50,086 nt of DNA from a candidate division WOR-3 bacterium (GCA_965649115.1 CBFGJN010000006.1:1-50086), one strand, 5' to 3'; positions 11,195-46,412 are shown, numbered from the stretch's first letter. Numbers and translations: made by a program. Notes: generated by a model not told the origin, from the letters alone.

Positions 11195-12493
11195 TTAAAA
11201 TGCTTGACCAGATGAAAATGATATAACACCATTATTGGCATAGTCAATTCTAAAAACAGGAACAGATGTTCTCGTTAATTGAATTCTTAATCCAATACCA
11301 TAAACCGATATTCTACTTCCCCAATAGGCAAAGTCATAAAAAAATAAAGGTCCAAAAGCTAATAAATTAAAAATTTCATTTGTATAAAATCTTATTTCAA
11401 ACGAAGTTCTATAAACTTTATTAGAAAAGTTTTCAAAGTAATTTAATCCTCTAATTCCCATAATTCCTCCTACCCAAAACCCTTTTGTTGAAGATGTGTC
11501 CTTTATATCCATATAATTAAAACCATTATATAAAGCAAAAGTTATAAAATAAAATGGTTTATAGTAAAATGAGTTTGAAAGAACAACGTAGTTATAGCTT
11601 GGATTTATTTCAAATTCAAGTCTTAAATTGGATAATGTTTTTTCTTTAAGGAATGAAAATGAACTTATAAAACTTATAAAATCCTTACCAATAGCAATGT
11701 AGCTCCCAAAACCTTTACTAAATGCTTCTTCTTTTGCAAAATTATTGACATTCTTTAAGAATCCAAAATTTATATTAGAAAAACTATAACCGAGAATTGG
11801 TCTAAAATCTCTAAAAATTCTAAACCCTAAAAATGGTTCATTTTTGGGATTTTTGAAGTTGTATCCTACATTTAAACCAGTGACATTATAAATTTTATCT
11901 AAATAGTTATTTCTAATTATCCAAAAATAATATGAAAATCCCTTAATTCCCCTACAAGTGCTTTTTGATGACTGAAAATAAAAATTTTTTTCTAAATTTG
12001 TAATTTTTGAATAATAATCAAATGTAATTAATTTTATTAATGAACTTGAAGAAAAACCTCCTTCAATACCCTTGTATTCAGAGCTATTTGTAAAAGAAAC
12101 TCTACTCCATGTTCCTGTTCCTAATAAATTTAAGTCTTGAATTCCAAAATCAAATTTTCCTTCACTTCCTGAGCCTTCAACATTTAAGTAAATTCCAAGT
12201 GTCCAAACATCTTTTGTTATAATTTTAACATTAATAGTATCACCATTTATCTCTTTCAAAATATCAACTGAATAAAACAAACCCGTGGATAACAATTTTG
12301 ATTTAATATCTGTAAGTATTGTTGTATCATTTAAAATTGAGCCTTTTTCAATAGGAATCATATTTGCTATTACGAAGGCTTTTGTTTTAAAATGTAATTT
12401 ATTTAGAATTTTATAAGTTCCATAATTTTCATCAAATATATTTTTCGTTATAATTTCTACATTTCCAACAATGTAAGATATTACAATTAGCAT
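11195..12493 (-). CDS. Omp85/BamA-TamA-like outer membrane protein
   Basis: POTRA-like N-part (LLSTGLF), NLLGTG, IRG loop, C-terminal Phe (GQAF). Confidence 0.7.
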   Translation of the reverse strand: MLIVISYIVGNVEIITKNIFDENYGTYKILNKLHFKTKAFVIANMIPIEKGSILNDTTILTDIKSKLLSTGLFYSVDILKEINGDTINVKIITKDVWTLGIYLNVEGSGSEGKFDFGIQDLNLLGTGTWSRVSFTNSSEYKGIEGGFSSSSLIKLITFDYYSKITNLEKNFYFQSSKSTCRGIKGFSYYFWIIRNNYLDKIYNVTGLNVGYNFKNPKNEPFLGFRIFRDFRPILGYSFSNINFGFLKNVNNFAKEEAFSKGFGSYIAIGKDFISFISSFSFLKEKTLSNLRLEFEINPSYNYVVLSNSFYYKPFYFITFALYNGFNYMDIKDTSSTKGFWVGGIMGIRGLNYFENFSNKVYRTSFEIRFYTNEIFNLLAFGPLFFYDFAYWGSRISVYGIGLRIQLTRTSVPVFRIDYANNGVISFSSGQAF

Positions 12494-13852
12494 TTATAGT
12501 TTTGAAACCCAATTTTCAATAGGTTCAAGGTGAGCTGTAAAATGCCTTAAATACTTTGATTCTTTAATAATTCTCATTCCTTTTATTAATTGTTTCTTTT
12601 TCTTAATTTGTTCAAAAACCTCAATTACATATTCCAAATGACTTTTCGTATAAACTCTCCTAGGAATAGCAAGTCTAACAAAATCATATTTAGCATCCTT
12701 GAACATAAATTTTCCAACCTCAACAGCTCTTATCCCACCTTCAATATATAGAGCAACTACTAAACTTTGTCCAGGAAATTCGTTTTCATCTATATTTTCT
12801 AAAAACCTTTTTGCTTCAACATAAACTGCATGTCCTCCAAAAGGTTTCATAACTGGAATTCCTAATTTATCTAATCCTTGTAATAAAAATTTAACTTGTT
12901 CAATTCTATGTCTTAAATAGTTTTCATCAGTACTTTCAAAAAGTCCGATAGCAATAATTTCTAAATCTCTTCCTGCCAAACCTCCATAAGTTGGAAAACC
13001 TTCAAATAAAATAAGATAATTTTTAAGTTCATTAGCAATTTCTTCATCATCTAATGCTATAAATCCACCAATATGATTTAATCCATCTTTCTTAGCACTA
13101 AATGTTATAATATCCCCATAACTTAATGTTTCATTTATAATTTCAAGAATTGTTTTTTTTGAGTAATCCTTATCTCTTAACTTTACTAAATAACTATTTT
13201 CTGAAATTCTACAAGCATCAATCATAAGTTTAACATTATATTTTTTACACATTTCTTTTGCTTCTTTAACATTTTTTGGACTTACCGCTTGACCACCTCC
13301 TGAATTGTTCGTTATTGTTAAAACAACAAGTTTTACTTTGTCTTTAAATTTTTTCATTAATTCTTCAAGTTTATTTAAGTCTATATTTCCTTTAAATGGA
13401 TATTCACTTTCTAAATCGTGCTCTTCTGGAATATCGTAAATTATAGCACCTTTGTACTCAAAATTTGCTCTTGTTGTATCAAAAAGTGTATTTGAAATAA
13501 CGATATCTCCACTTTTTATAAAATGTTCAGCTATGATTTTTTCACCTGCTCTTCCTTGATGAACAGGGATAACTTGCTTTTTGTTTGTAAATTTAATAAC
13601 AGCTTCTTGAAATTTATAATAACTTTCAGAACCAGCATAACTCTCATCTCCAAGCATCATAGCAGATAATTGATACTTACTAAGTGCAGATGTGCCACTA
13701 TCCGTTAATAAATCAATTGTTATAACACTTGAAGGAAGTAAAAAGACATTATAGTGAGCATTTTTAATATAGTTTAATCTTTCTTCTTTTTTAGTAATAG
13801 GAATAGGTTCAACAACTTTTATTTTATATGGTTCAAATTTCAAATTATCCAA
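12494..13852 (-). CDS. tnaA: Tryptophanase (beta-eliminating lyase), TTG start
   Basis: DLLTDSG, SAKKDG, EGFPTYGGL, RLAIPRRVYT; LRHFTA favours TnaA over tyrosine phenol-lyase (LRFFTA). Confidence 0.88.
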   Translation of the reverse strand: MDNLKFEPYKIKVVEPIPITKKEERLNYIKNAHYNVFLLPSSVITIDLLTDSGTSALSKYQLSAMMLGDESYAGSESYYKFQEAVIKFTNKKQVIPVHQGRAGEKIIAEHFIKSGDIVISNTLFDTTRANFEYKGAIIYDIPEEHDLESEYPFKGNIDLNKLEELMKKFKDKVKLVVLTITNNSGGGQAVSPKNVKEAKEMCKKYNVKLMIDACRISENSYLVKLRDKDYSKKTILEIINETLSYGDIITFSAKKDGLNHIGGFIALDDEEIANELKNYLILFEGFPTYGGLAGRDLEIIAIGLFESTDENYLRHRIEQVKFLLQGLDKLGIPVMKPFGGHAVYVEAKRFLENIDENEFPGQSLVVALYIEGGIRAVEVGKFMFKDAKYDFVRLAIPRRVYTKSHLEYVIEVFEQIKKKKQLIKGMRIIKESKYLRHFTAHLEPIENWVSKL

Positions 13853-13889
13853 GGATTGAAAATTTTAAAGTTATCAAATTTAATAAGTT

Positions 13890-14255: not shown

Positions 14256-14675
14256 ATGGCCCTTTTAATTTTAACCTTAATACCACAATTAGAGAAAGAG
14301 GGGGGAATAACTGTCCAAGGTTCCAGATTGACAAATGAAACCGTAGAAAGCTGGATATCTGTAAAGGAAAACGGATTCTATTTGAAATACCTAACATACC
14401 AAGACAATATCAACAAAGTTTCTCTAACTCTAAAAGGAAAAGGGAAATACATAGTAAATGTATATGTAAGTAGAGATGGTGATTACTACTATTATAGATT
14501 TCCAATAGAACTTCAAGAAGGTCCAAAAAACTTCACTTTTGAATTGAAGGATGGTATTCAAATGGGTTTTGGTATGCCAGAATTTCCAGGTTCAAAAATG
14601 CCAAGTAAAATTATAATTACACCTGAGGAAAACAACAACATTGAAATTCAAGTTTTAAAAACAATAATAGAATAA
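14256..14675 (+). CDS. Hypothetical exported beta-rich protein
   Basis: Short hydrophobic N-terminus; co-oriented with the next gene. Confidence 0.7.
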   Translation: MALLILTLIPQLEKEGGITVQGSRLTNETVESWISVKENGFYLKYLTYQDNINKVSLTLKGKGKYIVNVYVSRDGDYYYYRFPIELQEGPKNFTFELKDGIQMGFGMPEFPGSKMPSKIIITPEENNNIEIQVLKTIIE

Positions 14676-14687
14676 GGAGGATTGAAC

Positions 14688-16070
14688 ATGATTTTAGCAA
14701 TGATTTTAGATGCTCCATTTTCAACTAATGTTAAAGTTTCAAATTGGAATGTCTCAACTTCAAAAGACCAACTTGAAGTTAGCATCACTAAATCTTCAAA
14801 ATGGATAGTCACATCTTGGATAGATACAGATTGGTCATCTTTCTTTTCTGCCAATGACTTAGCAGTAAGTTCAGATGGTGGTTCAACTTGGAAGTTTGTA
14901 ACTTATTATAAACCACCAGATTATCAGAATTGTTGGATAGGTGATCCTTACGTTGCATCTGAACCTTCAAATCCGGATAAGTTCTATTGGGTAGGTATGA
15001 TTTATTGTAATCCTAACAATCCAAAAGGTGAAATATATTTTTGTACTAATAATTCAACACCAGATAATGCTTCTAATTGGACTTGTAAAATCCTTCCTCC
15101 AAATGATAATTGGGCATATTTCAAGGATAAACCAAATATAATAGCTCTTGGTAATGGAATAGTACTTATAAATTATACAACTGACAAGTACGGAAATTAT
15201 GAAATTTTAATTGCAAGATCAAGTGATTATGGAAATACTTGGAGCACAATAAGACCATCCGCAGGCATTGTTTCAACAGTCGCTTATTTCTCAATATACG
15301 GTTCAACAATATATCTATCTCAAAATAATTTCAATTCAGGATTAAGAATAGATGTAAGAAAATCAACAAATGGCGGTTTGAACTGGTCATTTGTTTCAAG
15401 TCCAGCAACGATTTCAACTGGTTCATATGGAACTTCTTGTAGATATTTCAAAAGACCAGCTAAAATTCATTCAAATATAACAGCTTATTCAAACAAAATT
15501 GCAGTTTCTTATGTTAGCGACTATAATGGATATTGTAATGTTGCAGTCGCTTATTCAAGTGATGGTGGTTCAACATGGACAAGAAAATTTATATATCCAT
15601 CTTCAAGAGATCAGGTTTTGCCTATGATAGCTTCATCAAGGAATGGATACTTATATGTAATGTGGCAAGAATTGTACAGTTCAACTTATTCAACATGGAG
15701 AACTATGTTTTCATATTCAACAAATTGGTCATCATTCTCTACACCTTCAAGAGTTTCAGACCATAATTATAAATTTAATCAAAATCCAGCAGGACACGAT
15801 TATAATGGTTTATTCATTGATAATAGCGGTGTTTATGCAATATGGGCAAATGACTACTATACTGATGATGCTGGACTTGTATGGTTCTCCAAAGCAACAT
15901 CATCAATTCCACTAGCTAACATAAGTGAAAATAAAATTGATTATACTAATGCAAAAATTTATTCAATTGACGGAAAGCTTTTAGGAAACTATAATTCTAA
16001 AAGTAATTTAAAACCTGGTATTTACATAATAAAATCGGAGAAAATATCCAAGGTTTCTGTGATTAAATAA
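14688..16070 (+). CDS. BNR/Asp-box (sialidase-like) beta-propeller protein with T9SS-like C-terminal domain
   Basis: Repeated SSDGGSTW-type boxes; C-terminus IYSIDGKLL..LKPGIYIIK; SD AAGGAGG at 14674-14680 fixes the start at 14688. Confidence 0.8.
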   Translation: MILAMILDAPFSTNVKVSNWNVSTSKDQLEVSITKSSKWIVTSWIDTDWSSFFSANDLAVSSDGGSTWKFVTYYKPPDYQNCWIGDPYVASEPSNPDKFYWVGMIYCNPNNPKGEIYFCTNNSTPDNASNWTCKILPPNDNWAYFKDKPNIIALGNGIVLINYTTDKYGNYEILIARSSDYGNTWSTIRPSAGIVSTVAYFSIYGSTIYLSQNNFNSGLRIDVRKSTNGGLNWSFVSSPATISTGSYGTSCRYFKRPAKIHSNITAYSNKIAVSYVSDYNGYCNVAVAYSSDGGSTWTRKFIYPSSRDQVLPMIASSRNGYLYVMWQELYSSTYSTWRTMFSYSTNWSSFSTPSRVSDHNYKFNQNPAGHDYNGLFIDNSGVYAIWANDYYTDDAGLVWFSKATSSIPLANISENKIDYTNAKIYSIDGKLLGNYNSKSNLKPGIYIIKSEKISKVSVIK

Positions 16071-16088: not shown

Positions 16089-16331
16089 AAAAAATAATAT
16101 TAAAATCAACAAAATAAAATTAATTACTTGTAAAATCAATAAAATTCTTATCCAAAATAAGATAATGTTAAATTTTTCATTAAATTGGGACAAAATTTTA
16201 TCAAGCTTAATTTCAACACCTTTTATTATTTCTAATAAATTATCAGTTTTTTTATCTTCTTGAAATTTTGTTGCAACTTGAACTGCACTTGGCAATATAC
16301 TTATTAAAAAATCAATAATTTTTTTAAACAT
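16077..16331 (-). CDS. Small hypothetical protein with a C-terminal transmembrane helix
   Basis: Overlaps the gcvPA stop; hydrophobic C-terminus. Confidence 0.7.
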   Translation of the reverse strand: MFKKIIDFLISILPSAVQVATKFQEDKKTDNLLEIIKGVEIKLDKILSQFNEKFNIILFWIRILLILQVINFILLILILFFRGK

Positions 16332-17643
16332 CTTTTAAAATTTCAGCTAATTCATCAATTTCTTCTTTCTTTCTTTTTTCACTAACAGCTATTAATAAGT
16401 AGTTATCTCCAAGCAATCTAACCTCTGGACCTACTAAGAATCCTTTTTTAGCACATTCAAAAATAACTTCTTTTGCTTTTTTATTTGTTTTTATTACAAA
16501 TTCCCTAAATGTTGGACTATCAAACACAAGTTTATGTTTTAACTTCTCTTTTAAATACTCGGCCTTGTTAAAAATAAGTTTTGCTAATTTTTTTAGCCCT
16601 TCTTTACCCATTAATGTTAAATATATACAAACAGCAGTTGCTATTAATTGTTGGTTAGTACATATATTACTAGTTGCTTTTGCTCTCCTTATGTGTTGTT
16701 CTCTTGCTTGAAGTGTTGTTACAAAACCTCTCCTTCCATATTTATCTTGTGTCAATGCAACAATTCTACCTGGCATTTGTCTAATATATTCCTTTCTTGA
16801 AGTAAATAGTCCAACATAAGGACCACCAAATGACAATGGAATACCAAGCGATTGTCCTTCACCAACAGCAATATCGCTACCGTACTCACCTGGTGGCGAT
16901 AAAATAGCTAAACTAACAGGGTCAAAAACACTTATCAAAAGAACATCCTTTGATTTTACAATATCCCTAATTTCAAAAACTTCCTCAACAATTCCAAAAT
17001 AATTTGGATTTTGAATTACAACACTTGCTGTCATATCATCAATTAAACTCCTTAATTGGCTTAAATCAATCCTTCCATAATTATCAAAATTAACTTCTAC
17101 TATATTAGCTTCTATATTTTGTAAATAAGTTTTTAAAACCTCCTTATAAGATGGATTTAAGTTTTTAGGAATTATAACTTTATATTTGTTTTTTATCCTA
17201 AAACTCATCAAAACTGCTTCAGCAAGTGCAGTTGCTCCATCATATACTGAAGCATTTGAAACATCCATCTTTGTAAGCTCACATATTAGTGATTGAAATT
17301 CAAACATTACTTGAAGTGTCCCTTGGCTTACCTCAGGTTGATAAGGTGTATAAGCGGTATAAAATTCACTTCTTAATAGTAATTGACCTAGTGAAGAAGG
17401 TGTAAAACAATCATAAGCTCCACCACCTGCAAAAATTTTAAAAATTTTATTTAGATTTCCAAGATTTTCAATATATTCTCTTGCTTCCTCTTCGCTCAGG
17501 GCAGGAGGTAGTTTAAAATCATCAAGTTCTAAATTTTTTGGAATTTTTGATTTATAAAAAACTTCTAAATCATGATATCCAAGATAATTTAAAATTTCCT
17601 TAATTTCATTATCACTAAGTCCAAAATAGTGCCTTGCAAACAA
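16324..17643 (-). CDS. gcvPA: Glycine dehydrogenase (decarboxylating) subunit 1, TTG start
   Basis: FYTAYTPYQPEVSQG, FGGP and REQHIRRAKATSNICTN. Confidence 0.95.
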   Translation of the reverse strand: MFARHYFGLSDNEIKEILNYLGYHDLEVFYKSKIPKNLELDDFKLPPALSEEEAREYIENLGNLNKIFKIFAGGGAYDCFTPSSLGQLLLRSEFYTAYTPYQPEVSQGTLQVMFEFQSLICELTKMDVSNASVYDGATALAEAVLMSFRIKNKYKVIIPKNLNPSYKEVLKTYLQNIEANIVEVNFDNYGRIDLSQLRSLIDDMTASVVIQNPNYFGIVEEVFEIRDIVKSKDVLLISVFDPVSLAILSPPGEYGSDIAVGEGQSLGIPLSFGGPYVGLFTSRKEYIRQMPGRIVALTQDKYGRRGFVTTLQAREQHIRRAKATSNICTNQQLIATAVCIYLTLMGKEGLKKLAKLIFNKAEYLKEKLKHKLVFDSPTFREFVIKTNKKAKEVIFECAKKGFLVGPEVRLLGDNYLLIAVSEKRKKEEIDELAEILKDV

Positions 17644-17644
17644 G

Positions 17645-17717
17645 AGCCGTTGGCCGGACTCGAACCGGCAACCTGGGCATTACGAATGCCCCGCTCTGCC
17701 AATTGAGCTACAACGGC
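17645..17717 (-). tRNA. tRNA-Thr(CGT), CCA not encoded
   Basis: Acceptor stem GCCGTTG/CAACGGC; anticodon arm GGGCA-TTCGTAA-TGCCC; GTTCGAG T-loop. Confidence 0.95.
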
Positions 17718-21327: not shown

Positions 21328-21330
21328 AGA

Positions 21331-21404
21331 TGTGCCCGGGCGGACTTGAACCGCCAACCTTCTGCTCCGGAGGCAGACGCTCTATCCAATTGAGCTACGG
21401 GCAC
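21331..21404 (-). tRNA. tRNA-Arg(CCG), CCA not encoded
   Basis: Acceptor stem GTGCCCG/CGGGCAC; anticodon arm TCTGC-CTCCGGA-GCAGA; GTTCAAG T-loop. Confidence 0.95.
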
Positions 21405-23197
21405 TAAAATATAATTTTTTGAACATTTTGTTTATATTTTAAGATATATATACCTCTTTTAAAACTTTGACATCCATTAAAACTTTTCTTCAAAAGCAAG
21501 CCATTTACTGAGTAAATATCAAATGGTTTAATTGAACAAATTTGGTTATCTTTTAAGTAGTAGAATTTTTCAATACTTTCTGAGAGTTTTGTTGTTTGAT
21601 AAATTGGTAAGATAATATGAGATGGATATTGGGCATTATGATAAACTCTATTATTGGCTATAAGTTTATCTGGATCATTTCTTTTAAATGGACCTCCATT
21701 ATTTGGATTGGCTTCAAATCTTGGATAATTTGCTGAAGAGATTATAACCATTAATCTATGACCTGGTAAAAATGCCCAAGCTGTTGTTCCTACTCTTATA
21801 AGAACAGAATCAATTTGATTAGGATTTAATAGAACTTCTTGATTAAAACCATACCTATACCTTGCTTTTATAATTCCATCAGTGACCAAAATTTTTCTTC
21901 CATCAGGAAAAACATCAACAACTCTAACTGAAAAATCAGTATCAAGTCTATTAGACGAAATAAATAATTTTGCATAAATTGTTCCTATAACAAGTAATGT
22001 ATCTGTTAAAACTGGTGTTTGAAATACAACAACATCACTTCTATTTATAAGTGGGCTTTGGTCTTTTGGTCCTGCTTGAGTTGGATCTAATAATTCATTA
22101 CCACCTATTGTAGGAGTAGGATCATAAGGATTGTAAATGTATTCAGAATAACCATTATTTTCACTTGGATAATTTGGACTAATTAAATTTCCATTCCTTA
22201 AATAAAGATTCCTATAATAAATACCTCTTGGTGGAAATGTATCTGAGTAAACCCACTCGTTCAATCCAATTATATAAAATTTAACAGGTGGAAAACTATT
22301 TATGTAATTACAAGCTGATTGATTTCCTGCCAAATGGCAATCGTACCAGCTTCCAATAGCCATATATAAATCATTATTAAAATCAAGAAAGTCTATATAA
22401 GCGTTTGGGAAGCTTAAATCACCTTGATTTGCTTGACCAAATCCGAGATGTGTCCAAGGACCAATTATTAATTTTTGTTTATTTTTAGCACCAGGCATTC
22501 CGTAAAATTGAAGTTTATTAAATATATCAACTTGACTTTCAATGAAAATATCAAACCAACCTCCAAAATGAAGCATAGGTATATTTACATAATTTAGTCT
22601 TTCTTCTAAATTTAAAATTTTCCACATACTATCATAACTTGGATGATTGGCAATTGAATCTATTAAATATCCAACATTTAATCCATTTAACCAATTTTCT
22701 ACAAGCTGTTTTCTAAATTCTCCTCCTTGAAAAGCCGCATAATGATACAAACTATGAGCACCTACGAATGGAACAGCACATTTATAATTTGGATGACCAG
22801 TTCCTGCAAGTAAGTACTGAGTTATTCCCATTGCAGAGAACCAAGAACCACAAATACTATCTCTTGCCCAGCTTTGATTTATAATCCAATTCACAGCATC
22901 ATAACCATCTTGTAATTCGCCCCAGCTGTCAGTTAGAAATACAGAAGGCTGCCCTTCACTTCCTTGAAATCCTCTTAAACTTTGAACAACAAGAACATAT
23001 CTTTTATAGTCAGTTATGAAAGGTTTAAAATAATTAAGTCCAACTGCATTCCTATCATAAGGGGTTCTAACAAGGATAACCAAATATGGTGGAAAGAATG
23101 GCCAAGGCTTACATACCTCAGTTGCTAATTTAACACCATCCCTCATGGGCACCATTACCAAATCACAAGAATAGTTAATTAATAAACTTAAAACCAT
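21404..23197 (-). CDS. CocE/NonD-family serine hydrolase with T9SS-like C-terminal domain
   Basis: MRDGVKL, RTPY, GWFD, IGPWTH and SSANYPRF; C-terminus IYSVNG..GIYILK. Confidence 0.9.
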   Translation of the reverse strand: MVLSLLINYSCDLVMVPMRDGVKLATEVCKPWPFFPPYLVILVRTPYDRNAVGLNYFKPFITDYKRYVLVVQSLRGFQGSEGQPSVFLTDSWGELQDGYDAVNWIINQSWARDSICGSWFSAMGITQYLLAGTGHPNYKCAVPFVGAHSLYHYAAFQGGEFRKQLVENWLNGLNVGYLIDSIANHPSYDSMWKILNLEERLNYVNIPMLHFGGWFDIFIESQVDIFNKLQFYGMPGAKNKQKLIIGPWTHLGFGQANQGDLSFPNAYIDFLDFNNDLYMAIGSWYDCHLAGNQSACNYINSFPPVKFYIIGLNEWVYSDTFPPRGIYYRNLYLRNGNLISPNYPSENNGYSEYIYNPYDPTPTIGGNELLDPTQAGPKDQSPLINRSDVVVFQTPVLTDTLLVIGTIYAKLFISSNRLDTDFSVRVVDVFPDGRKILVTDGIIKARYRYGFNQEVLLNPNQIDSVLIRVGTTAWAFLPGHRLMVIISSANYPRFEANPNNGGPFKRNDPDKLIANNRVYHNAQYPSHIILPIYQTTKLSESIEKFYYLKDNQICSIKPFDIYSVNGLLLKKSFNGCQSFKRGIYILKYKQNVQKIIF

Positions 23198-23199: not shown

Positions 23200-24672
23200 C
23201 TATCTAATTATAATTTTACTTATTTTTGAATTAAATTTTATAATAAAAATCCCATTTTTTAAGTTTAAAATTTGCCCTTTCTTAATTTTTGATTTTTTAA
23301 GTAATTTACCATCAACTGTCCAAATTTCAAAGTTTCCATCTGAAAGAAATTTCAAAGTATTTCCAATCAAAATAAAACCTGAATTCCTAAAACTTTCATA
23401 TATATTTACAGATTTATTCCATTTTATAACAACAATATCTGAGTTATTAGTAGTGGAATATGAGATACCGCAAGCGTACAGAGTATCATTTATATCTTTA
23501 AAATCAACAGCAATATCCAAAAGACCATTGTAATCGTACTGATAGCTATAAACTGTATCACCATTTATTGGTTCAATTTTATAAATAACTAAATCTCCTT
23601 TTGTAAATGAATTTTCAATTACGCCGCCTACAAGAATTTTGTTATCAATTGTTCTTCTAATTTTTAGAAAATAGTCATTGGAATTTGGAACCTTATTATA
23701 TGTTTTTTGCCAAACAACATTTAATAATTGATTTAACTTGACTAAATAAGCATCATTTAAAGTAAATCCATTATTCAAAAATCCAACAGCATAAATATCA
23801 TAACCAATTGTAATTAAGTCATTTAAAACATCTAAACTACTACCCGCACCATTTTTAGTCCATTCAGCAATAATTGAACCATCATTATTATTTATCATTC
23901 CAACGTAGAAATCATTATTTTTCCAACCTCCTACAATAATATCACCATTTAACAACTTATCAAGTGCGTATATTCTTGAATTATCACTATAAGTTATACC
24001 CCATATTTGACTACCATCATTTATACTAAATTTTTGAACTTCACCTCTATCTCCATGCCCAACAGCTATAACTGAGTTATTATCTAATGACTTAATACTT
24101 TTGTACATAAAACCACCAGGAATTGTCCTAAAAATTCTCTGTCCGGTTGCTCTATTAACTTTTACAATATATCTTGCAGAATTGCTAAAACTTCCATCAT
24201 ACCATATTTCCCAATCACTACCAGCAGCATAGTAATTATTATCAGGTCCTATAATTAAATCAGAAAATCCATATCTATCAACTCTAATAGGCCAACCTGA
24301 ACCACAACTTCCATTATCATCATCTATATATTGCCATATTATATTTCCATTATCACTTCTAAATTTTGCTATATAACCACAAGGTGTTGAACTATTTGAA
24401 AAGGGATAGACTGTTCCAGCAACTGCTAAATTGCTATCTAATGGATCAATTCTAATAACTTTTATACTGTTTCTACCATAACCACTAAAACTTAAAATTT
24501 TCTGCCACTTTATTGTTCCATCTAAACCATTTAATCTTGCTAAAAATATATTATTACCATAACTACCACCGATAATTACATCATTTCTAAAAACTTCAAT
24601 ACTATAACATTTGTCTAATGTATCTAAACTTCCATCTATCCTAACTATCCAATTTAAAAGAAAAATTAACAT
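23200..24672 (-). CDS. Exported beta-propeller repeat protein with T9SS-like C-terminal domain
   Basis: Repeated GxxxW blades; IWTVDGKLL..GIFIIK. Confidence 0.75.
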   Translation of the reverse strand: MLIFLLNWIVRIDGSLDTLDKCYSIEVFRNDVIIGGSYGNNIFLARLNGLDGTIKWQKILSFSGYGRNSIKVIRIDPLDSNLAVAGTVYPFSNSSTPCGYIAKFRSDNGNIIWQYIDDDNGSCGSGWPIRVDRYGFSDLIIGPDNNYYAAGSDWEIWYDGSFSNSARYIVKVNRATGQRIFRTIPGGFMYKSIKSLDNNSVIAVGHGDRGEVQKFSINDGSQIWGITYSDNSRIYALDKLLNGDIIVGGWKNNDFYVGMINNNDGSIIAEWTKNGAGSSLDVLNDLITIGYDIYAVGFLNNGFTLNDAYLVKLNQLLNVVWQKTYNKVPNSNDYFLKIRRTIDNKILVGGVIENSFTKGDLVIYKIEPINGDTVYSYQYDYNGLLDIAVDFKDINDTLYACGISYSTTNNSDIVVIKWNKSVNIYESFRNSGFILIGNTLKFLSDGNFEIWTVDGKLLKKSKIKKGQILNLKNGIFIIKFNSKISKIIIR

Positions 24673-24709
24673 GGTTTGAAAATTATAAAGGATAAAAAAA
24701 TATGATCAT

Positions 24710-24778: not shown

Positions 24779-27490
24779 TTAATAATCCAAACCAAAGTAA
24801 ATGTTAAATCTTGGACTGCTATCAGTGTATTTTAAATTCGTTCTCCAAGCCCAATTGAAATATATATTTCCAAAACCTAAAAATATAGATATATTAAAAC
24901 CAAAAGATGATTTAGGTGTTGATAAACTATCACCTTCAATAAATTTAAAATTATCATTATCAAACCATGCAGAACCAATATCATAGAATATAGAGCCTCT
25001 TACTGATGAAATTGTCAAAGGTATTGGAAAGCCAAGTTTTAAGTATTCTATAAATGGAAATCTAAATTCCACATTTGAGACAAAAGAATTATTTCCAACT
25101 AAAATTGTATCAAGTGTCCAACCTCTTATCAAGTCAGGTCCATATAAAATGATTCCTTCTTTATCCTTTCCAAAAGATTTATATCCAATTGCTCTAAAAG
25201 CTAAGGTATATCTTTTAGCAAATCTAAAATAATATCTTAAATCTCCATAAATTACATTATTTTTAATTTGTGATAATAAAAGTGATGGTTGAAAAGCGAC
25301 AAAAAATCCATGTCCATCAACGGGACCCCAAGGATAGTACAAAATTTTATCCCTTGAAAAAGCTATATAACCGCTAAATCCATTTTTATATAAAATCGTA
25401 TCATAAAGAAAACCAAAAATTGTAAAGTTTCCTAAGTACCTTGTATAATAATTATATGTTAAGCCAAATTCAAGTCTATCAAATCTATTGAATGGATAAT
25501 AAATCAGAAATGAACTTCCAAGAATTTTATCATAACTATACTTGTCAAATTCTTTTAAATAACTTATTGACCAATACTGATAAGATGATAAGTCCAAATC
25601 CCATCGTTTTTTAAGATACAAATAATCTAAAAAGAAAATAGCATTAGTTATATCTTGAATATAGGATTGCGTTTGTAAAATAATCCAATTGTCTCCTGTC
25701 CAATCACTAAAACCAAGTGTTATATAACCTCCAATACCAAAAGAGCTTCCAAGAGCAACACCTGACAACCAACTTAACGATAGCTCAGTTCTATACTTAT
25801 AGTTCTTATAATCAAAAAGTTTAAATTCAGAAAATTCACCAATTTTCAATTCAATACTATCTAAAATTCTCACTTCTGGAATATAAAAAATTTCTCTTGC
25901 TCCTTCATATTGTAAATTTATAACCATCTTTTGACCGCTTTTATCAAAAGAAAAACTATAAACAGCACTTGGAAAATTCGTTAATTTGTAAAGCTTATCA
26001 TTATTATATTCAAAAACATTTATTGTTCCTTTGTATTCAAGTGCAACAACAGGTTTATCATTTCTTAAATCAAAATAATAAATTTTCCCAAGGTAAGGCG
26101 TAATCTGATAAATGCTATCATTTTCTAAATTATATTTGAAAACTGCATAATTACCAAATTTGAATGAGCTTTCATTTCTATCGCTTATAAAATATATATT
26201 CCCATCACTTGAAAAAACAGGAAACAACTCATTAAAGTAATCATTCGTAATCTTTCTTAATGTTGAATTTTTTAAATTGTAAATATAAATATCTTGTTTA
26301 CCATCTTTTAGTCCTATAAATGCTAATAAGTTGTTGTCCTTTGAAAAACTTGGATAATTTATTCCATCAAGTGTTTTAATTTCTATTTTTCTTTTAATTT
26401 TCCCATTTAAATCAGATATATAAATAATATCATATCCTTTTCCCCTTGCAACAAATGTGAAATAATTGCCATCACTTGAAAATGAAATTTTTGCAGATAA
26501 GAGATGTAAATTTTCTAAATCAGGTTTTGTTTGACCTGAGACAATTTTCTTTTGATATGAACCTGTAATTGTAGAAATATAAATATCTGAATAATCATTT
26601 CTATCAGAAATGAATATAATTTTTGAACCATTCGGATCAATAGCAGGTGCAATATTAAAATAACCTTGTCCTTTCTTGTTGTTCGTTATTCTAATGACAT
26701 TAGAAGGTAAGTTAAAATCTCTCAAAGTTGGATAATATAACTCTTTTAAAAATATATTAAATTTTCTTGAAAATTCATCAATTTCAATTCCAAATGTTCT
26801 TTTAATAGCACTATTTAGGTCGTACATCATAAGAACATTTGATATAAATTCTTTAAGTTTTTCTTTTGAATATTCCCTTTCAATATAATAAAAAATTGCC
26901 TGTCCTTCCTTATAAACAATATAACCTCCATAATAATTTAAAACATTTATTGGAAGAAGTAAATCATTTAGAACCAAATCTCTTACATAAGTTTCACCAC
27001 TAATATCCCATTTAATTGAAACGTACTCTGCCATCCCTTCCATTACCCAAAGAGGAATTCTTGCCACATTAGATAATAATGAGCCTGTTGTTGAAAGTGC
27101 TTCATATTGAAAGGCATGAACTAATTCATGTCTTAAAACATGTCTAAAATCTTCATAAGAATTAAAGAATGGAACTACAATTCTATTTTTGAAAACTTCT
27201 GTAAAACCTCCTACTCCCTCATCTATTATATCAAATATGACATTTGTTTGTCTAAAATCTTCTGCTGAATTGTAAATTATTACAGGAATTTTATTTCTTG
27301 GTATTCTTGGCATTAGTGTTTTATATTCCTCATAAGCTTCTTCTAATACTGAAATTGCAAAATCTTTTAGATACTCACCTCCTCCATAGTAAAAAACTTT
27401 AAAGTGTTCGCTTTGGGCTACCTTCCAATCAAAATCACGATATTGTATTTTGTTTTTTCCAAAGTAGGTTATAAGGAGTATTTCAATCAT
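24779..27490 (-). CDS. Zn-peptidase (MA clan)-like domain + PD40/TolB-like propeller + Omp85 barrel
   Basis: HELVH..WVMEGMAE; PxFSxDG repeats; IRG, EFRFP and terminal GLDY. Confidence 0.82.
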   Translation of the reverse strand: MIEILLITYFGKNKIQYRDFDWKVAQSEHFKVFYYGGGEYLKDFAISVLEEAYEEYKTLMPRIPRNKIPVIIYNSAEDFRQTNVIFDIIDEGVGGFTEVFKNRIVVPFFNSYEDFRHVLRHELVHAFQYEALSTTGSLLSNVARIPLWVMEGMAEYVSIKWDISGETYVRDLVLNDLLLPINVLNYYGGYIVYKEGQAIFYYIEREYSKEKLKEFISNVLMMYDLNSAIKRTFGIEIDEFSRKFNIFLKELYYPTLRDFNLPSNVIRITNNKKGQGYFNIAPAIDPNGSKIIFISDRNDYSDIYISTITGSYQKKIVSGQTKPDLENLHLLSAKISFSSDGNYFTFVARGKGYDIIYISDLNGKIKRKIEIKTLDGINYPSFSKDNNLLAFIGLKDGKQDIYIYNLKNSTLRKITNDYFNELFPVFSSDGNIYFISDRNESSFKFGNYAVFKYNLENDSIYQITPYLGKIYYFDLRNDKPVVALEYKGTINVFEYNNDKLYKLTNFPSAVYSFSFDKSGQKMVINLQYEGAREIFYIPEVRILDSIELKIGEFSEFKLFDYKNYKYRTELSLSWLSGVALGSSFGIGGYITLGFSDWTGDNWIILQTQSYIQDITNAIFFLDYLYLKKRWDLDLSSYQYWSISYLKEFDKYSYDKILGSSFLIYYPFNRFDRLEFGLTYNYYTRYLGNFTIFGFLYDTILYKNGFSGYIAFSRDKILYYPWGPVDGHGFFVAFQPSLLLSQIKNNVIYGDLRYYFRFAKRYTLAFRAIGYKSFGKDKEGIILYGPDLIRGWTLDTILVGNNSFVSNVEFRFPFIEYLKLGFPIPLTISSVRGSIFYDIGSAWFDNDNFKFIEGDSLSTPKSSFGFNISIFLGFGNIYFNWAWRTNLKYTDSSPRFNIYFGLDY

Positions 27491-27560
27491 TTGAAAATTA
27501 TAAAGTTCCCAATTTTCTTTGAAGCTACGCTTTTCAAAAGTTAAAAGAAGTAAGGGTTCG

Positions 27561-27879
27561 TGCTTTGTCCAATAAATAATTTAAATAATTGACACGAAGA
27601 AATTGTTTGTTTTATGGGGGTTCTTTAAAGGGAGCGAAGCCTCCCTTACCGAAATATGGGGATTTTAAAGCCAAAGGCTTAAATATAGGGTGGGTGGGGA
27701 ATTGAGGAATAATTATAATTTCAGAATTACTTTGTCCAATAAATAATTTAAATAATTTATAGGGGGTATTGATTAGGGGGGCAAAGCCCCCCTGACATAA
27801 AATGGGATCTTTAAAGGCAAAGCCTTGAACACAGGGTGGGTGGGGAAAATATATACTCTCAGAATTATTGGACAAAGCA
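27561..27879 (+). mobile_element. Two fused MITE copies (27561 to about 27729; about 27728 to 27879)
   Basis: TGCTTTGTCCAATAAATAAT, second CTTTGTCCAATAAATAAT at 27730, end ATTGGACAAAGCA. Confidence 0.85.
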
Positions 27880-34038: not shown

Positions 34039-36215
34039 TAAAATCCTTCCATATCATCACTTTCTTCCCTTATCTTTTGTTTATTCAGCCTTCTAAAATC
34101 TTGAAAGTTATAAATTAAAACAAATTGAATTGATGGCCATTTTCTGCTCATATTTTGAGATTGATAAAAATTAAAATTATAGTTTTCACTATTAAAAGTA
34201 AATGTTTTAAAGACATCTGAAAAATTAAATATGAAAATGAAGTTTTTATAAGGAAGTCTTAAACCTAAATCAAAATAATAATTTTCTTTAATTTCTCCTT
34301 GTGAAGTTTTTCTTGGAGCATTATAAACTGCTGAAATTTGAAGTAATAAAATTCTTATAGAAGATTTAATATCATAAGAAAAGCTTTCTTTTCTTAAATC
34401 GCTATACAAATTCATTTTATACAAATTTATTGAACCTTGAAAATCAAAAAATTTCCCTTTCCTATAACTAGTTGAAAATTCACTGCCAAAAAATTCAGAA
34501 AAGCCTACATTTTCAGGATAATTTATTAAAAAGCTATCCTTATAAGAAACAATTTGTTCAATTACATTCTCACTTTTTCTATAATAACCGTAGATGTTAA
34601 TTATGCTATTTTGAAAACCAATTTCAAAGCTATGGGAATATTCGGGATTTAAGTTCGGATTACCAATTCTTTTAGTATATTGGTCAAGTTTTACTTCATA
34701 AGGTTCTAATAACCAAGGTCTTGGATGTTCAATTCTTCTTGAATAATTTAAGTAAATTTCATTAAATTGTGAAATTTTATATGATAAATTTAAAGAGGGA
34801 AAGAAATCATTGTATTGTTTTTTAAAGTTTGAAATACTTCTATCCGTTCTTTCAAATCTAAGACCAATTTGACCATTTAAACGATTAAAACTTTTGTTAT
34901 AGGTAAAGTAAAGTGCATTCGTTATTTTATAAAAATTAGAAGAAAAACTATCATACGGAATAAATCCATTTTGATAGTTATAGTAAATTACATCATCTTT
35001 GGAATTGTTATAATTTCCAAGATAACCAAAAGCAAGTGTCTTATTATCGTAATCAAAATTAAATCTTATAGTGCTTGATGGACCGCTTTCTGTATTCCTA
35101 AATCCGTATATTACATTATCATTTTGATCTTTATTTATAGTTTCAGAATTTTCATTAAAAGTTCTAATTGTCCAATAAATGCCAGCATTTATAAAATTTT
35201 TATTATAACCAAAGTAAGCTGAACTATTGATACCACCAACTTTAAAATCAAAATTCGTTTTATAATAATTTGAACCATTAGTTATTGAATTTGATAACAT
35301 ACCAAATCCCCAATGATTTAAACTTCCTTCAAAACTAAATGAGCCATAATCTAAGTTTAATCTTAAACCATAAGGATTTGTCCATCTATTAAAATCCCCA
35401 CTCGTTAGAAGTGTTTCATTTGAAAAAATTCTCTTTGTCTGAGAATTGCTATTAAATGAAAATTTATTGTAGTTTATTGATGTTGAAATTTTTAACTTGT
35501 TTTTTGAAACTCCATATAGTAAGTTTAATCCATAATTATCATAAGTTCCAATTCTTCCATTTATTGAATAACTTCTTCCTTCTTCCCTTGTAGTTTTTAA
35601 AATGATATTTACAATTATATTTCCTTCTGCTTCGTATCTTGCAGATGGATTGGTAATAATTTCAATTCTATCAATTTGAGTTGCAGGAATTTGTTTTAAA
35701 GCATCTGAAATTTCTAAATTCGTTGGTCTATTATTTATAAGTAATGTTATATTTGATGAACCCCTTATCTCTACATTATCATTATTATCTACATTAACAC
35801 CTGGTGTATTTCTTAGAACATCAAGTGCTGTTCCACCAGTAGTTGATATATTCTCAGATGGTCTTATTACTCTTTTACCCTGTTCATAAGTAATTGTTGG
35901 AGGTTGTGCTATTACTTGTTGTTCCCTTAACATAATACCTTTTGGATTGAGTGAAACTTTACCTAAGCTTACATTTTCCTTATTTATATTTACATTTAAA
36001 ATTTTCGTTTCATAACCCAAGAATTCAATTTTAATTTTATAGTTTCCATAATTTAGATTATTGATTTTTATATTTCCGTTTTCATCACAATAACCACCTA
36101 AAATTTTTGTAGTATCTTTATAAACTTCATAAGCACAATATCCAATAGCTTCACCTTTTTCATTAACAACGGTTAATTCCAAATTTCCAATTTGTAAAAA
36201 GGTTATAATTAGCAT
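34038..36215 (-). CDS. TonB-dependent receptor / outer membrane beta-barrel
   Basis: FLGY N-domain, DVLRNTPGV, IEIITNPSARY and GNPNLNPE. Confidence 0.88.
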   Translation of the reverse strand: MLIITFLQIGNLELTVVNEKGEAIGYCAYEVYKDTTKILGGYCDENGNIKINNLNYGNYKIKIEFLGYETKILNVNINKENVSLGKVSLNPKGIMLREQQVIAQPPTITYEQGKRVIRPSENISTTGGTALDVLRNTPGVNVDNNDNVEIRGSSNITLLINNRPTNLEISDALKQIPATQIDRIEIITNPSARYEAEGNIIVNIILKTTREEGRSYSINGRIGTYDNYGLNLLYGVSKNKLKISTSINYNKFSFNSNSQTKRIFSNETLLTSGDFNRWTNPYGLRLNLDYGSFSFEGSLNHWGFGMLSNSITNGSNYYKTNFDFKVGGINSSAYFGYNKNFINAGIYWTIRTFNENSETINKDQNDNVIYGFRNTESGPSSTIRFNFDYDNKTLAFGYLGNYNNSKDDVIYYNYQNGFIPYDSFSSNFYKITNALYFTYNKSFNRLNGQIGLRFERTDRSISNFKKQYNDFFPSLNLSYKISQFNEIYLNYSRRIEHPRPWLLEPYEVKLDQYTKRIGNPNLNPEYSHSFEIGFQNSIINIYGYYRKSENVIEQIVSYKDSFLINYPENVGFSEFFGSEFSTSYRKGKFFDFQGSINLYKMNLYSDLRKESFSYDIKSSIRILLLQISAVYNAPRKTSQGEIKENYYFDLGLRLPYKNFIFIFNFSDVFKTFTFNSENYNFNFYQSQNMSRKWPSIQFVLIYNFQDFRRLNKQKIREESDDMEGF

Positions 36216-36243
36216 ATTTTAAATTTTAAAGTTAAATGATTAT

Positions 36244-37460: not shown

Positions 37461-38017
37461 TCTTTACTTCCTGGTTTTTCAATAGGGATTTTTAAAGCAC
37501 ATAATTCACAATTTTCAGGATTATAAGTTTTAACTTTAACTTTAATCAAACTATAAAAAGGATATTCAAATTTTACATTTTCACTTCTATCAACTAAACA
37601 ACCAATCCCAACAATATTACCATTATAACTTTTAACAACTTCTATAACTTCTCTTGTTGAAGAACCCGTTGTAATAACATCCTCAATAATTAAAACATTT
37701 TCCCCTTTATTTATATAGAAATCTCTTCTTAATTTCATAATACCATTTTCTCTTTCAGTAAAAATTGCCCTAGCATTTAAAAACCTTGCAGTTTCATAAG
37801 CAACGATAATAGCTCCAATAGCAGGACCAATAACAACATCAATTTTATAATTTTTAAAATAATTTGCCAAATTTTTACACAAAAATTCACTATATTTTGG
37901 ATATTGTAGGACTAATGCACTTTGAAAATATGTGTCAGAATGAAGACCAGACGATAATAGAAAATGACCTCTTTTAATAGCACCTGTTTCTTCATAGATT
38001 TTTAAAATTTCATTCAT
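37448..38017 (-). CDS. pyrE: Orotate phosphoribosyltransferase
   Basis: GHFLLSSGLHS and IEDVITTGSS. Confidence 0.95.
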   Translation of the reverse strand: MNEILKIYEETGAIKRGHFLLSSGLHSDTYFQSALVLQYPKYSEFLCKNLANYFKNYKIDVVIGPAIGAIIVAYETARFLNARAIFTERENGIMKLRRDFYINKGENVLIIEDVITTGSSTREVIEVVKSYNGNIVGIGCLVDRSENVKFEYPFYSLIKVKVKTYNPENCELCALKIPIEKPGSKEWKR

Positions 38018-39002
38018 TTATTAAGCTCCTTATTTGTTCAATTCTTGATTTAAAGTAATCATTATTTTTTTCTATGTTTAAAGCCTTTTGTAGCCAATTT
38101 AAAGCTTCTTTATAATTTCCAAGTGATTCATAACATTTGGCAACTGTATCCATAATATTAGCATCCTTTGGTGATAATTTATTTGCTTTTAATGAAAATT
38201 CAAGGCCAACTTCTTGAAATATATTTCTTGAACATAATTCCCAAGCTATATTATTATAACTATCAGAGCTTATGTCCTTTGAAAATTTCATATTTTGTAA
38301 AAGGTACCTTATATTGTTTTCTAAATTCTTACTTGAAAGCCTAATATAAGAAACTAACATATATTCATATTGCCAACTTTTATAAATCCTTTTTAAATCT
38401 TCAATTGGCTGTTTGCTATCATCAATTCTAATTTCAACAAGTCTATCATCAATTCCATCATATCCACCATCCTTTAATTTAACAATAACTGCACAAGATT
38501 GTCTTCCTCTTCTATCACCACCTGCTTTATCACCTGCTTGTAATGATAAAATTATTCTTTCGGCTAATGGCTTATTTGTGCTATTTAAAAATGCTTTTTC
38601 CATCTCTTTTAAAACACTTTCAGATTTTAATAAATTTCCAAGAATAATATATCCCCTTGAGACAATATGACCTGCATAAGGAAAATTTTTATTTCCCGTA
38701 AAAGCATAACCATCTCCATTTATATTTAAAACCCCTACTTGTCTCAATTCAAATAAACTATCACTTGCTCTCAATATATTAATTATTTCTTTTGGAGAAT
38801 AACCTAATTTTAAAAGTTCAAGTCCTAATTTTCCAAATTTCACATTAACAAAACTTTGTGTCGCAACAGCTCCATATTCTGGGTCTATCCAAGGAACTAA
38901 AAAACCAACACCTAAAACCTTTGAACAACTTCCAATCCCAATTTCCTTTGTAATAGTATCAACAGCAATAATGCTAAATGTTGAAAATAAAAAATGTATC
39001 AT
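38010..39002 (-). CDS. DUF1028 Ntn-hydrolase-like protein with C-terminal TPRs
   Basis: TFSIIAVD, AVATQ and GGDRRGRQS; YNNIAW..DT TPR pattern. Confidence 0.88.
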   Translation of the reverse strand: MIHFLFSTFSIIAVDTITKEIGIGSCSKVLGVGFLVPWIDPEYGAVATQSFVNVKFGKLGLELLKLGYSPKEIINILRASDSLFELRQVGVLNINGDGYAFTGNKNFPYAGHIVSRGYIILGNLLKSESVLKEMEKAFLNSTNKPLAERIILSLQAGDKAGGDRRGRQSCAVIVKLKDGGYDGIDDRLVEIRIDDSKQPIEDLKRIYKSWQYEYMLVSYIRLSSKNLENNIRYLLQNMKFSKDISSDSYNNIAWELCSRNIFQEVGLEFSLKANKLSPKDANIMDTVAKCYESLGNYKEALNWLQKALNIEKNNDYFKSRIEQIRSLINE

Positions 39003-44963: not shown

Positions 44964-44966
44964 ATT

Positions 44967-46412
44967 CTAATAAATGAAAACTTTCCTTCTGTTTATTATA
45001 TAAAAACCTTTATCAAGCATTATAAAATCGTTATCATGAACAATACCCTTGAAAACTAATTTTCCATTTAAAGAATAAATTTCTAAATTCCCTTCTCCAT
45101 AAATCCTAATCCCATTTTTCACAATCTCAAACTTCAAGCAATTTTTATTTTCATTACTTATTAGTGGAGTACATATAATTGACTTATTTATTAAAATTGG
45201 ATTTGAACTTGTAAAGTCAAAATTGGCATTACCTTTATCATTTATACTTGAAAAATTATAAGTGAAATTAAGATTTAAAGGCATAATGTTATTTATTACA
45301 AAGCTTATAGGCTTTTCAGAACAAGATAAAAATGCATTCCCCTCTATTCTAATAGCATATATTGAAATAGGGGAACTATAATCGCTTTCACCCACTGCAA
45401 CGATTGAAATAGGACTTCTATAAGCATCATAAATATAATCATTATTTACCGTCCCATATCTTGATTGAGCTATTATAGATGAACAATTTGTATCACTTAC
45501 AAGAGCGAAAACATCATATCCATCACCAAAACTATTACTATTTCCTAAAATTAAAACATAGTTGTTGATATTAAATAATCTAACTCCATAATCATTATTA
45601 TTTACTAAACTATTTGGCGTGAAATAACAGGCTCTTAAAATTGACAAATTCCTATCAAGCTTTGCAAGGAAAACATCATTATTATAACTTCCAGTTATGT
45701 AGAAACGATTATTATAAAATTTAACATCATTAATTCTTGTATTTGGAAGTCTTGTAGAATTTAAAACACTATAATCATTAGCTTTAATCAAGTAAAGATA
45801 AGCATAGTTATCAGAACCATTACTGATGAGAATAATGGTGTCATTTACAACTGCCATAGAACCAAAAAATTGATAAACAGTTAAATCAAAACTTCTTGAA
45901 TTTAAATATATAATTTGACTTGGTTGAATGATAATTTTGGCAATTCCTACATTTTGTAAATTATTATTAAAACCTTTATAACCAACAATAAATGTATCTG
46001 ATTTATAAGGTAAAATTTTTTGACCCAATTCATCCCTTTTAGCTCCTGTTAGTCCAATTACTTTGTTAGCATTAACAGTTAGACTTGTAGTATTTATTTT
46101 CAAAATTGTAATATCTTTATTATTTAAGTTTTGATCAATAATTCCCTCTCCCGTTATAACAACTTCATTAGAAGGATTTATAACATATCCGCCAGGAACA
46201 ATCCCTCCTCTACTATCTGATGTTTTTCTTGAATCAATGTAATTTCCAAGTTGGTCAAGTTTTACAACAATGGTATTAGGAAAGTTATCCCCATAACCAC
46301 CAGATATTATTATTGTATCATTATTAAGTAATAAAACATTCGTTCCTCTTGTTCTTTGGTCAAATATATAAATATTTTGCCAAACTGTCAAATCAAAAAG
46401 AATAAAAATCAC
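44967..46412 (-). CDS. Exported beta-propeller protein with T9SS-like C-terminal domain
   Basis: Repeated blades (DVFLAKLD); IYSLNGKLV..GFYII. Confidence 0.75.
   Translation of the reverse strand: MIFILFDLTVWQNIYIFDQRTRGTNVLLLNNDTIIISGGYGDNFPNTIVVKLDQLGNYIDSRKTSDSRGGIVPGGYVINPSNEVVITGEGIIDQNLNNKDITILKINTTSLTVNANKVIGLTGAKRDELGQKILPYKSDTFIVGYKGFNNNLQNVGIAKIIIQPSQIIYLNSRSFDLTVYQFFGSMAVVNDTIILISNGSDNYAYLYLIKANDYSVLNSTRLPNTRINDVKFYNNRFYITGSYNNDVFLAKLDRNLSILRACYFTPNSLVNNNDYGVRLFNINNYVLILGNSNSFGDGYDVFALVSDTNCSSIIAQSRYGTVNNDYIYDAYRSPISIVAVGESDYSSPISIYAIRIEGNAFLSCSEKPISFVINNIMPLNLNFTYNFSSINDKGNANFDFTSSNPILINKSIICTPLISNENKNCLKFEIVKNGIRIYGEGNLEIYSLNGKLVFKGIVHDNDFIMLDKGFYIINRRKVFIY

Follow-up and report, generated by a model that had tools for sequence, protein, structure and literature searches.

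Short uncharged N-terminal leaders as putative export signals in one order of Candidatus Hydrothermia, a class in which no signal recognition particle was found

How small can the N-terminal signal be with which a bacterium sends its envelope proteins out of the cytoplasm? This question is raised by a stretch of 50,086 nucleotides (nt) from a candidate division WOR-3 bacterium (GCA_965649115.1, CBFGJN010000006.1:1-50086; hereafter the window), in which nine predicted genes begin with a very short hydrophobic N-terminus (Table 1). The initial annotation had listed these N-termini and read them as a non-canonical minimal export signal; re-reading of the sequence confirmed all nine. Textbook signal peptides have an h-region of about 7-15 residues plus n- and c-regions. 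From comparative sequence analysis, we lean slightly towards the view that the short N-termini are genuine, selected, minimal export leaders, which would replace the ordinary 17-25-residue Sec peptide on most signal peptidase I (SPase I)-type substrates of one Hydrothermia order. The window is contig C6 of a 1.85-Mb metagenome-assembled genome (MAG; G000 below) with 99 contigs, 94.5% completeness and 20 N in total, which belongs to the class Candidatus Hydrothermia in the WOR-3 group. Guanine-plus-cytosine (GC) content is 26-29% in this genome and 27% in its genus. The stretch is present in contigs of hot-spring metagenome runs and is little represented in the single RNA run.

Do the nine N-termini reflect a general pattern? 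Open reading frames (ORFs) of G000 were called as frames of at least 90 amino acids (aa) from the first ATG, GTG or TTG, with overlaps removed greedily, which gave 1660 ORFs, 1647 of them complete. A short leader was defined as Met plus 5-10 residues without D, E, K, R, N, Q, H or P, with at least four of L/I/V/F/M/W at residues 2-7 and no long hydrophobic stretch afterwards. This rule fits 158 of the 1647 complete ORFs (9.6%), against 15 of 695 ORFs (2.2%) in the outgroup genome G020, which represents another family of the class (39% GC, 800 kb; Fisher p = 5.5e-12). Thus, the pattern exceeds chance. A basic n-region is excluded by the rule itself, which bars lysine and arginine (K/R) within the leader run, and fitting ORFs are far above the outgroup rate. 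The run including Met is 6-8 residues long in 126 of the 158, below the textbook h-region, and the consensus is M-(I/L)-(F/I/L)-(L/I/F)-(I/L)-(L/F/I)-(S/L/N)-(Q/...). Mean Kyte-Doolittle hydropathy of residues 2-6 is 3.24 (2.42 for canonical h-runs), and the ten residues after the leader run carry a net charge of -0.34 (+0.29 for all ORFs). The run closes with S, G, T or A in 52 of the 158 leaders and with L, I, F or V in 93; Gln follows it in 44; and a cut site is implied only for the DUF1028 protein, before Thr.

Are the starts assigned correctly? The initial annotation held that they are pinned and that no longer peptides are hidden upstream, and close stops, Shine-Dalgarno (SD) sequences, a promoter motif and tRNA genes all bear this out. 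In 110 of the 158 short-leader ORFs, an in-frame stop lies at most 5 codons before the start (median 3 codons); 41 have an SD sequence, 54 have the promoter motif within 14 nt, and four genes begin 1-8 nt downstream of a same-strand tRNA gene. Counted over 1645 ORFs with at most one mismatch, the promoter-like motif CTTTAAAATTT stops 4-9 nt short of the predicted start in 420, and within 14 nt of it in 466. Because the motif lies so near to the starts, many mRNAs are presumably leaderless or near-leaderless. We rejected a tie between short leaders and leaderless mRNAs, as promoter-adjacent starts show no clear link (54/158 short-leader versus 412/1487 other ORFs). In the window, the starts at 24672, 27490, 36215 and 46412 lie 4-7 nt downstream of a CTTTA(A/T)AATTT motif. 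Besides the copy given in Table 1, CTTTATAATTT at about 24680-24690 ends 7 nt before ATG 24672, a similar motif precedes 36215 at about 36221-36231, and CCTTAAAATTT at about 46418-46428 ends 5 nt before GTG 46412. The SD sequence of the 14688 gene lies 7 nt before its ATG. For assembly, pieces of contigs from X1 and X4, two of four metagenome runs, were compared with the window at leader starts: contigs of both runs span the starts at 23197 and 27490 with 0 differences, and X1, which may be the source sample, also spans 24672. An alternative genetic code or read-through was rejected, as long ORFs end in TAA (17), TAG (8) and TGA (17). Hidden upstream starts are essentially excluded.

Which proteins carry the leaders? 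They belong to exported families, as the initial annotation had assumed: proteins with a type IX secretion system (T9SS) tail, BamA and Plug proteins, whose homologues are exported. PF18962 detected 45 T9SS tails in G000, 41 of them in complete ORFs. By rule, these 41 proteins divide into 24 with short K/R-free leaders, 7 with canonical peptides, 1 with a long K/R-free N-terminus and 9 'other'; about six of these nine are short variants by eye (e.g., MMELILITK, MLPFLYW), so that about 30 are short by eye. The true BamA (PF01103, E = 3e-41), which is encoded outside the window, begins with MLIILLS before EIVGKVEV. Among seven Plug proteins, five have short leaders, one is canonical and one is unclear. 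M16 peptidases, a PD40 protein and a protein similar to SurA have short leaders as well. G000 also has canonical peptides (MKMKRLFILITFILGFFSLAYAQ... and about two dozen more by eye), so that short leaders are not found on all of its exported proteins. Several of these canonical peptides end in A followed by Q (AYAQ, LNAQ, GYAQ), and many short leaders end in S followed by Q. Lipobox-like proteins of the same genome have kept K/R in 64 of 77 cases, with a median of 13 residues before Cys. This indicates that the loss is specific to SPase-I-type substrates and is not compositional drift.

We aligned homologues and compared leader lengths, as the initial annotation had proposed. Four orthologue families have short leaders, with ordinary peptides at the same alignment position in outgroups, and short starts recur in at least 17 genomes of varied GC, including GC-richer genera. 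Orthologues of the 432-aa protein within the genus begin with MLIVISY, MIIFISY, MFLFISY or, from a TTG codon, LIHLICY, followed by conserved IVGN/TVGK. The 903-aa protein begins in its own genus with M(I/V/L)E(I/L/F)...(T/S/V)Y before FGKNK, in the sister genus with MTFTFLFFLGY (in L005, a stop lies 2 codons before the ATG), and in the second family of the order with MIIFLLSQWS before FGQNK or MLFFLLSQWS before YGYNK. In families f3-f9 it has 18-25-residue peptides, mostly with K/R, and in other phyla it is canonical. Orthologues and paralogues of the TonB-type receptor carry 6-9-residue K/R-free leaders in both families of the order, and peptides of the type MRKNK..., MKRIK..., MRRFR... and MKRAF... 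in families f3, f8 and f9. Before the nucleophile Thr, the leader of the DUF1028 protein is 7 residues long in all three genomes of the genus, compared with 11-19 in six genomes from other families. T9SS-tailed proteins were also compared across genomes. In G016 (second family of the order, GC-rich, signal recognition particle (SRP) not found), 16 of 19 regions were interpretable, and 12 of these are short and K/R-free, 2 longer and K/R-free and 2 canonical. Among 15 such proteins in G020 (SRP not found), 7 are canonical by rule (9 by eye), and the rest mostly have 12-20 residues without K/R, with one borderline short. In G033 and G036 (other WOR-3 classes, SRP present), 18 of 19 interpretable proteins have K/R and 17-25 residues. 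Judged by this distribution, the short leader is a character of the order, superimposed on a tendency of the whole class to lose the basic n-region.

Inspection of the SRP, to which the initial annotation had pointed, revealed that it is not found in the whole class. The Ffh M-domain (PF02978) was detected in 0 of 31 genomes, with a positive control in 14 of 14 named genomes. Matches to the SRP54 GTPase (PF00448) in all 64 class genomes reached at most 30.3 bits and were all partial, so that 0 of 64 has a real SRP GTPase. In a phylum sample of 151 genomes, the matching genomes of other classes mostly had two SRP54 GTPase matches at E = 1e-65 to 1e-76. None of the frames of G000 joins a G1 motif with DTAGR, and tblastn of E. 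coli Ffh against G000 gave a best E of 0.37. The small SRP RNA (RF00169) was found in 0 of 5 class genomes and the large SRP RNA (RF01854) in 0 of 4, whereas G033, which is SRP-positive, gave 127.7 bits with the large model. SecY, LepB, Def and SecA were readily found in the same genomes (31, 29, 30 and 27 of 31, respectively), which indicates that the search method works for this class. In short, none of the Hydrothermia genomes searched, several of them rated 99-100% complete, yielded Ffh, FtsY or SRP RNA. Among WOR-3 families outside the class (f12, f24, f25 and f27; also f18, f22 and f26), some have no SRP54-domain match (0 of 14 genomes), and others have matches only at E of about 1e-40 to 1e-46, mostly one per genome. 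There are hints here of a wider or stepwise SRP erosion across the phylum. Neither such leaders nor a lack of SRP in this group turned up in the literature that we searched, and SRP, ffh and ftsY are not mentioned in the main text of the WOR-3 genome papers covered.

Has the export machinery changed together with the leaders? SecY, LepB and SecA are single-copy, LspA, TatC and YidC are present in G000, and SecB was not found. A second LepB, SecY or SecA was not found in the genomes searched; a second SecY in G017 comes from a bin with 7% contamination and was dropped from the alignment. The suggestion of an adapted SecA, SecY or LepB is weakly supported: the only signatures specific to the order are in the SecA variable insert and at the tip of loop 6/7 of SecY, and no such change was seen in LepB or in the pore, plug and lateral gate of SecY. 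In the SecY alignment, five columns separate 17 ingroup from 12 outgroup sequences, and two of them lie at the tip of cytoplasmic loop 6/7 (about residues 250-256; G000:C64:2364-3680). There, G-R-(K/R)-V-Y, which is kept in 12/12 class outgroup SecY and in E. coli, is replaced by G-K-A-V-V, G-R-G-V-V or G-L-S-P in 17/17 ingroup sequences. We take these positions to be those of E. coli R255/R256, which would dock the ribosome and FtsY. The SecA variable insert, between helicase motifs V and VI (G000:C14:2329-5379, about residues 655-705), has four Cys in most outgroup families (8 of 9 outgroup rows were effective, as the row of G030 was in a wrong frame). In the order it is Cys-free with a conserved aromatic W...YDEN.P.TW.YY, and family f3 is without the insert. 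Any clade has such signatures, so the loop and the insert are candidates and not evidence, and neither of them is tied to signal recognition. LepB shows two discriminating columns and small deletions, one of which is not common to the sister genus, and none of these is order-specific near the catalytic boxes. Three candidate changes were rejected. A prl-like SecY is not seen, since the plug, TM2b and TM7 (TM, transmembrane segment) are free of order-specific changes. A loss of peptide deformylase, which would leave the N-terminus uncharged, does not fit with Def in 30 of 31 genomes. A ribosome-binding C-tail of YidC that might compensate for SRP is also absent, as only 6 residues follow the domain, with no basic tail.

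How might such leaders work? Each leader would consist of Met and 5-6 strongly hydrophobic residues (L/I/F), usually with a small or polar residue next and often then Gln, 6-10 residues in total without K/R. The predicted substrates are periplasmic proteins, outer-membrane barrels and T9SS cargo. They would enter via SecA/SecYEG, and the leader would be removed by the single LepB; in the DUF1028 protein, the cut would fall exactly before the catalytic Thr. The extreme hydrophobic density and acidic residues just downstream may compensate for the lost length and charge. Without SRP, very hydrophobic N-termini could not be diverted to the SRP route, which may have relaxed the constraint for long, basic peptides. 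The distribution would fit an order of events in which SRP was lost in the class, K/R was then frequently lost in the class, and shortening followed in the order, although this is a hypothesis drawn from a single lineage. We give about even chances to the combined picture of a class without SRP (Ffh, FtsY and SRP RNA) and one order in which the SPase-I export signal is cut to an uncharged tag of about 7 residues.

How do the leaders compare with known systems? Like canonical Sec/SPase I peptides, they are found in the same families, where they align with the ordinary peptides of relatives; a hydrophobic core is common to both, the presumed cut is often preceded by a small residue, and the genomes encode Sec and LepB. 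Unlike them, they lack a basic n-region and nearly all of the c-region, have a core of only 5-6 residues after Met, and are 6-10 residues long overall, compared with 17-25 in relatives. Type IV prepilin leaders are short and basic and precede a hydrophobic segment. The leaders described here are alike in shortness to these class III leaders, but here the hydrophobic stretch is the leader itself and a polar mature sequence follows. In E. coli prlA/prlG (secY/secE) suppressors, proteins are exported even if their signal sequence is defective or missing. Proofreading would have to be similarly relaxed for a sub-threshold signal, but none of the five separating SecY columns lies in the plug, the pore ring or TM2b/TM7. 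According to a passage of PMC5837995, the Q-rule, that is Gln at +1 of SPase I substrates, holds in Bacteroidetes and not in the whole FCB (Fibrobacteres-Chlorobi-Bacteroidetes) group or related phyla. The leaders resemble this with Gln after the run in 44 of 158 and canonical peptides that end in A before Q, in a lineage outside Bacteroidota, but Gln is in a minority here. SRP is called conserved in all living organisms in a passage of PMC7844537, which also deals with E. coli suppressors of SRP deletion. Hydrothermia are like these suppressors and like reduced insect symbionts in that no Ffh or FtsY was found; unlike them, they are hot-spring and vent bacteria with genomes of 1.2-2.4 Mb and a full envelope machinery, and Ffh and FtsY went undetected in all 64 class genomes.

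Several points weigh against minimal export leaders. A stretch of 6-7 hydrophobic residues is less than the shortest textbook h-region and too short to span the bilayer as a helix, position -3 is usually L, I or F and not small, and six N-termini of G000 have Glu at position 3 (M-phi-E-phi..., including MIEILLIT at 27490), which inhibits export in model systems. Order-specific changes in the SecY pore, plug or gate or in LepB that might explain a relaxed recognition are missing. The link with SRP loss depends on a single evolutionary event, and SRP-less sister families keep normal lengths. The ORF caller and class rules are crude, and by-eye counts are subjective. The starts, conservation, distribution, lipoprotein contrast and machinery inventory are observed; the Sec route, the cleavage and the SRP link are steps that we infer. 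What speaks for a minimal signal is that real starts, exported families, sub-canonical length and absence of K/R are combined and kept across the order; that the leader is sufficient and is cleaved by LepB is the conditional part of the proposal. As a separate observation, Glu 3 of the 903-aa protein is kept in the genus genomes read. A serious alternative, which we hold to be rather unlikely, is a non-canonical targeting step. The leaders would then not be sufficient, cleaved Sec peptides but tags for another or additional step (a lineage-specific factor, or ribosome-bound SecA acting co-translationally without SRP); or export information would reside partly in the mature domain, with the leader removed by another protease or kept. 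Leaders that are too short and uncharged for the canonical model would fit well with this, as would the order-specific SecY loop tip and SecA insert, and with SRP missing, the class must already be targeting its proteins in some unconventional way. The alternative also agrees with the K/R kept in lipoproteins, whose peptide has to span the membrane for Lgt/LspA. However, no factor emerged as a candidate, SecA, SecY and LepB each occur without a second copy, and both Gln after the leader, as after the canonical peptides ending in A, and the exact Thr junction of the DUF1028 protein fit ordinary SPase I processing.

The two other explanations concern the genes themselves. Starts might be mis-assigned, with normal peptides encoded upstream via non-canonical starts, recoding, frameshifts or assembly errors. 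The genome is a MAG, and a few ORFs do have alternative upstream starts, e.g., MNLKKGGKT-MLNLIIITS. Nevertheless, the median of 3 codons to the upstream stop, the stop in L005, SD sequences and promoter motifs at proper spacing, the four adjoining tRNA genes, the recurrence in at least 17 genomes, the X1/X4 contigs without differences and the use of all three stop codons make this the least credible explanation of all. Alternatively, the leaders might be decaying remnants on proteins that are no longer exported, either through lost functions of the envelope or because the genes have become pseudogenes, or they might simply reflect an AT-rich composition; small genomes (1.2-2.1 Mb) and a genus of 27% GC might suggest this. 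Leader length and character are kept across the order, including GC-richer genera, and the carriers include BamA, TonB-type receptors, the SurA-like protein and T9SS cargo with intact full-length frames, which makes decay or a loss of export unlikely. An AT-rich composition would be expected to favour Lys rather than to remove it, lipoproteins of the same genome keep K/R, and the 39% GC outgroup has normal peptides. Taken together, decay or composition is highly improbable.

What would minimal export leaders mean? Every secretome prediction, and much of what is known of the Sec mechanism, is built on the rules for signal peptides (a basic n-region, an h-region of at least about 7 residues, AxA). 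If the leaders work as signals, 6-8 uncharged residues would be a new lower bound for a functional export signal, and the lineage would be a natural system for asking what SecA, SecY and LepB need. The n-h-c model would then not cover all of bacterial membrane targeting, and most of the exported proteome of the lineage would escape standard predictors. Counts of the secretome, carbohydrate-active enzymes (CAZymes) and surface proteins for these hot-spring bacteria are probably large underestimates. The apparent absence of SRP makes 'life without SRP' open to test in a non-symbiont; a WOR-3 strain has been cultured, and a passage of PMC12285271 describes it as having inner and outer membranes.

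Table 1. Short leaders, associated start signals and a basic comparator in the window
Feature	Position	Strand	Gene or context
Leader MLIVISY	12473..12493	-	432-aa POTRA-like, probable outer-membrane protein; gene 11195-12493
Leader-like MALLILTL	14256..14279	+	Putative 139-aa ORF 14256-14675; stop codon directly upstream
SD AAGGAGG (14674-14680) and leader MILAMIL	14674..14708	+	BNR-like protein 14688-16070
Leader MVLSLLINYSC	23165..23197	-	S15/CocE-NonD peptidase; gene 21404-23197
Leader MLIFLL(NWIV)	24655..24672	-	490-aa repeat protein, T9SS-tail-like C-terminus; gene 23200-24672
Leader MIEILLIT before conserved YFGKNKIQY	27467..27490	-	903-aa peptidase-MA/PD40/barrel protein; gene 24779-27490
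Promoter-like motif CTTTATAATTT	27495..27505	-	Ends 4 nt before ATG 27490
Leader MLIITFL before Q	36195..36215	-	TonB-dependent-type receptor; gene 34038-36215
Leader MIHFLFS before nucleophile Thr (TFSI)	38982..39002	-	DUF1028 Ntn-hydrolase-like protein; gene 38010-39002
Leader (GTG) MIFILF	46395..46412	-	481-aa protein, T9SS-tail-like C-terminus; gene 44967-46412
Comparator: canonical basic N-terminus MKRRKFRTNLNSLFVIFIAFIIILTSSIFRSC	3310..3405	+	PLD-like protein, same window

The proteins of the window differ in how clearly they can be assigned. The 12493 protein had been called an Omp85 protein, a name that calls for softer wording: its likeness to POTRA is sub-threshold (Pfam E = 0.0095, below the cut-off; weak matches to PDB POTRA chains at E = 0.24-0.99), there is no match to the Omp85 barrel (PF01103), and the true BamA is encoded elsewhere in the genome. 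Its ATG directly follows the TAA of an upstream beta-eliminating lyase gene, and therefore we rejected the possibility that it is the second half of a split BamA. The 36215 protein is a TonB-type receptor as annotated, with Plug, barrel and CarboxypepD_reg domains. Likewise, the Pfam DUF1028 profile begins at residue 8 of the 39002 protein, in agreement with the 7-aa leader that had been deduced for it. In the 14688 protein, whose Pfam BNR matches are under the cut-off, MILAMIL stands before DAPFSTNVKVSN, and a paralogue elsewhere in the genome has MIFFILS before DAPFGSEVKLSN. The 23197 protein matches TIGR00976 and, from residue 20, Peptidase_S15, and its upstream stop is 2 codons away. Its MVLSLLINYSC is possibly a K/R-free lipobox; the other eight of the nine window leaders have no Cys. 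Arg, as expected for a twin-arginine (Tat) signal, is absent from the window leaders, though TatC is encoded in the genome. The 139-aa ORF and the 481-aa protein have no Pfam or NCBIfam match. The label of a T9SS C-terminal domain likewise calls for softer wording in the window: the C-termini of the 14688, 21404, 23200 and 44967 proteins are tail-like, but no window protein reached PF18962 (E <= 0.01), and TIGR04183 had no match in the nine leader proteins. The canonical basic N-terminus of the PLD-like protein shows that signals or anchors with K/R at the N-terminus are still made in this organism.

Two further observations concern the surroundings of the starts. At 27560-27700, just upstream of the 27490 gene, the run contigs show joints, loose ends and high word depth, and this segment looks like a repeat or mobile-element junction. 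Fifteen genes of G000 begin 0-10 nt after a same-strand tRNA gene (contigs C2, C13, C47, C79 and 11 others), and in the window tRNA-Thr (17644-17717) adjoins a gcvPA-like gene (16324-17643).

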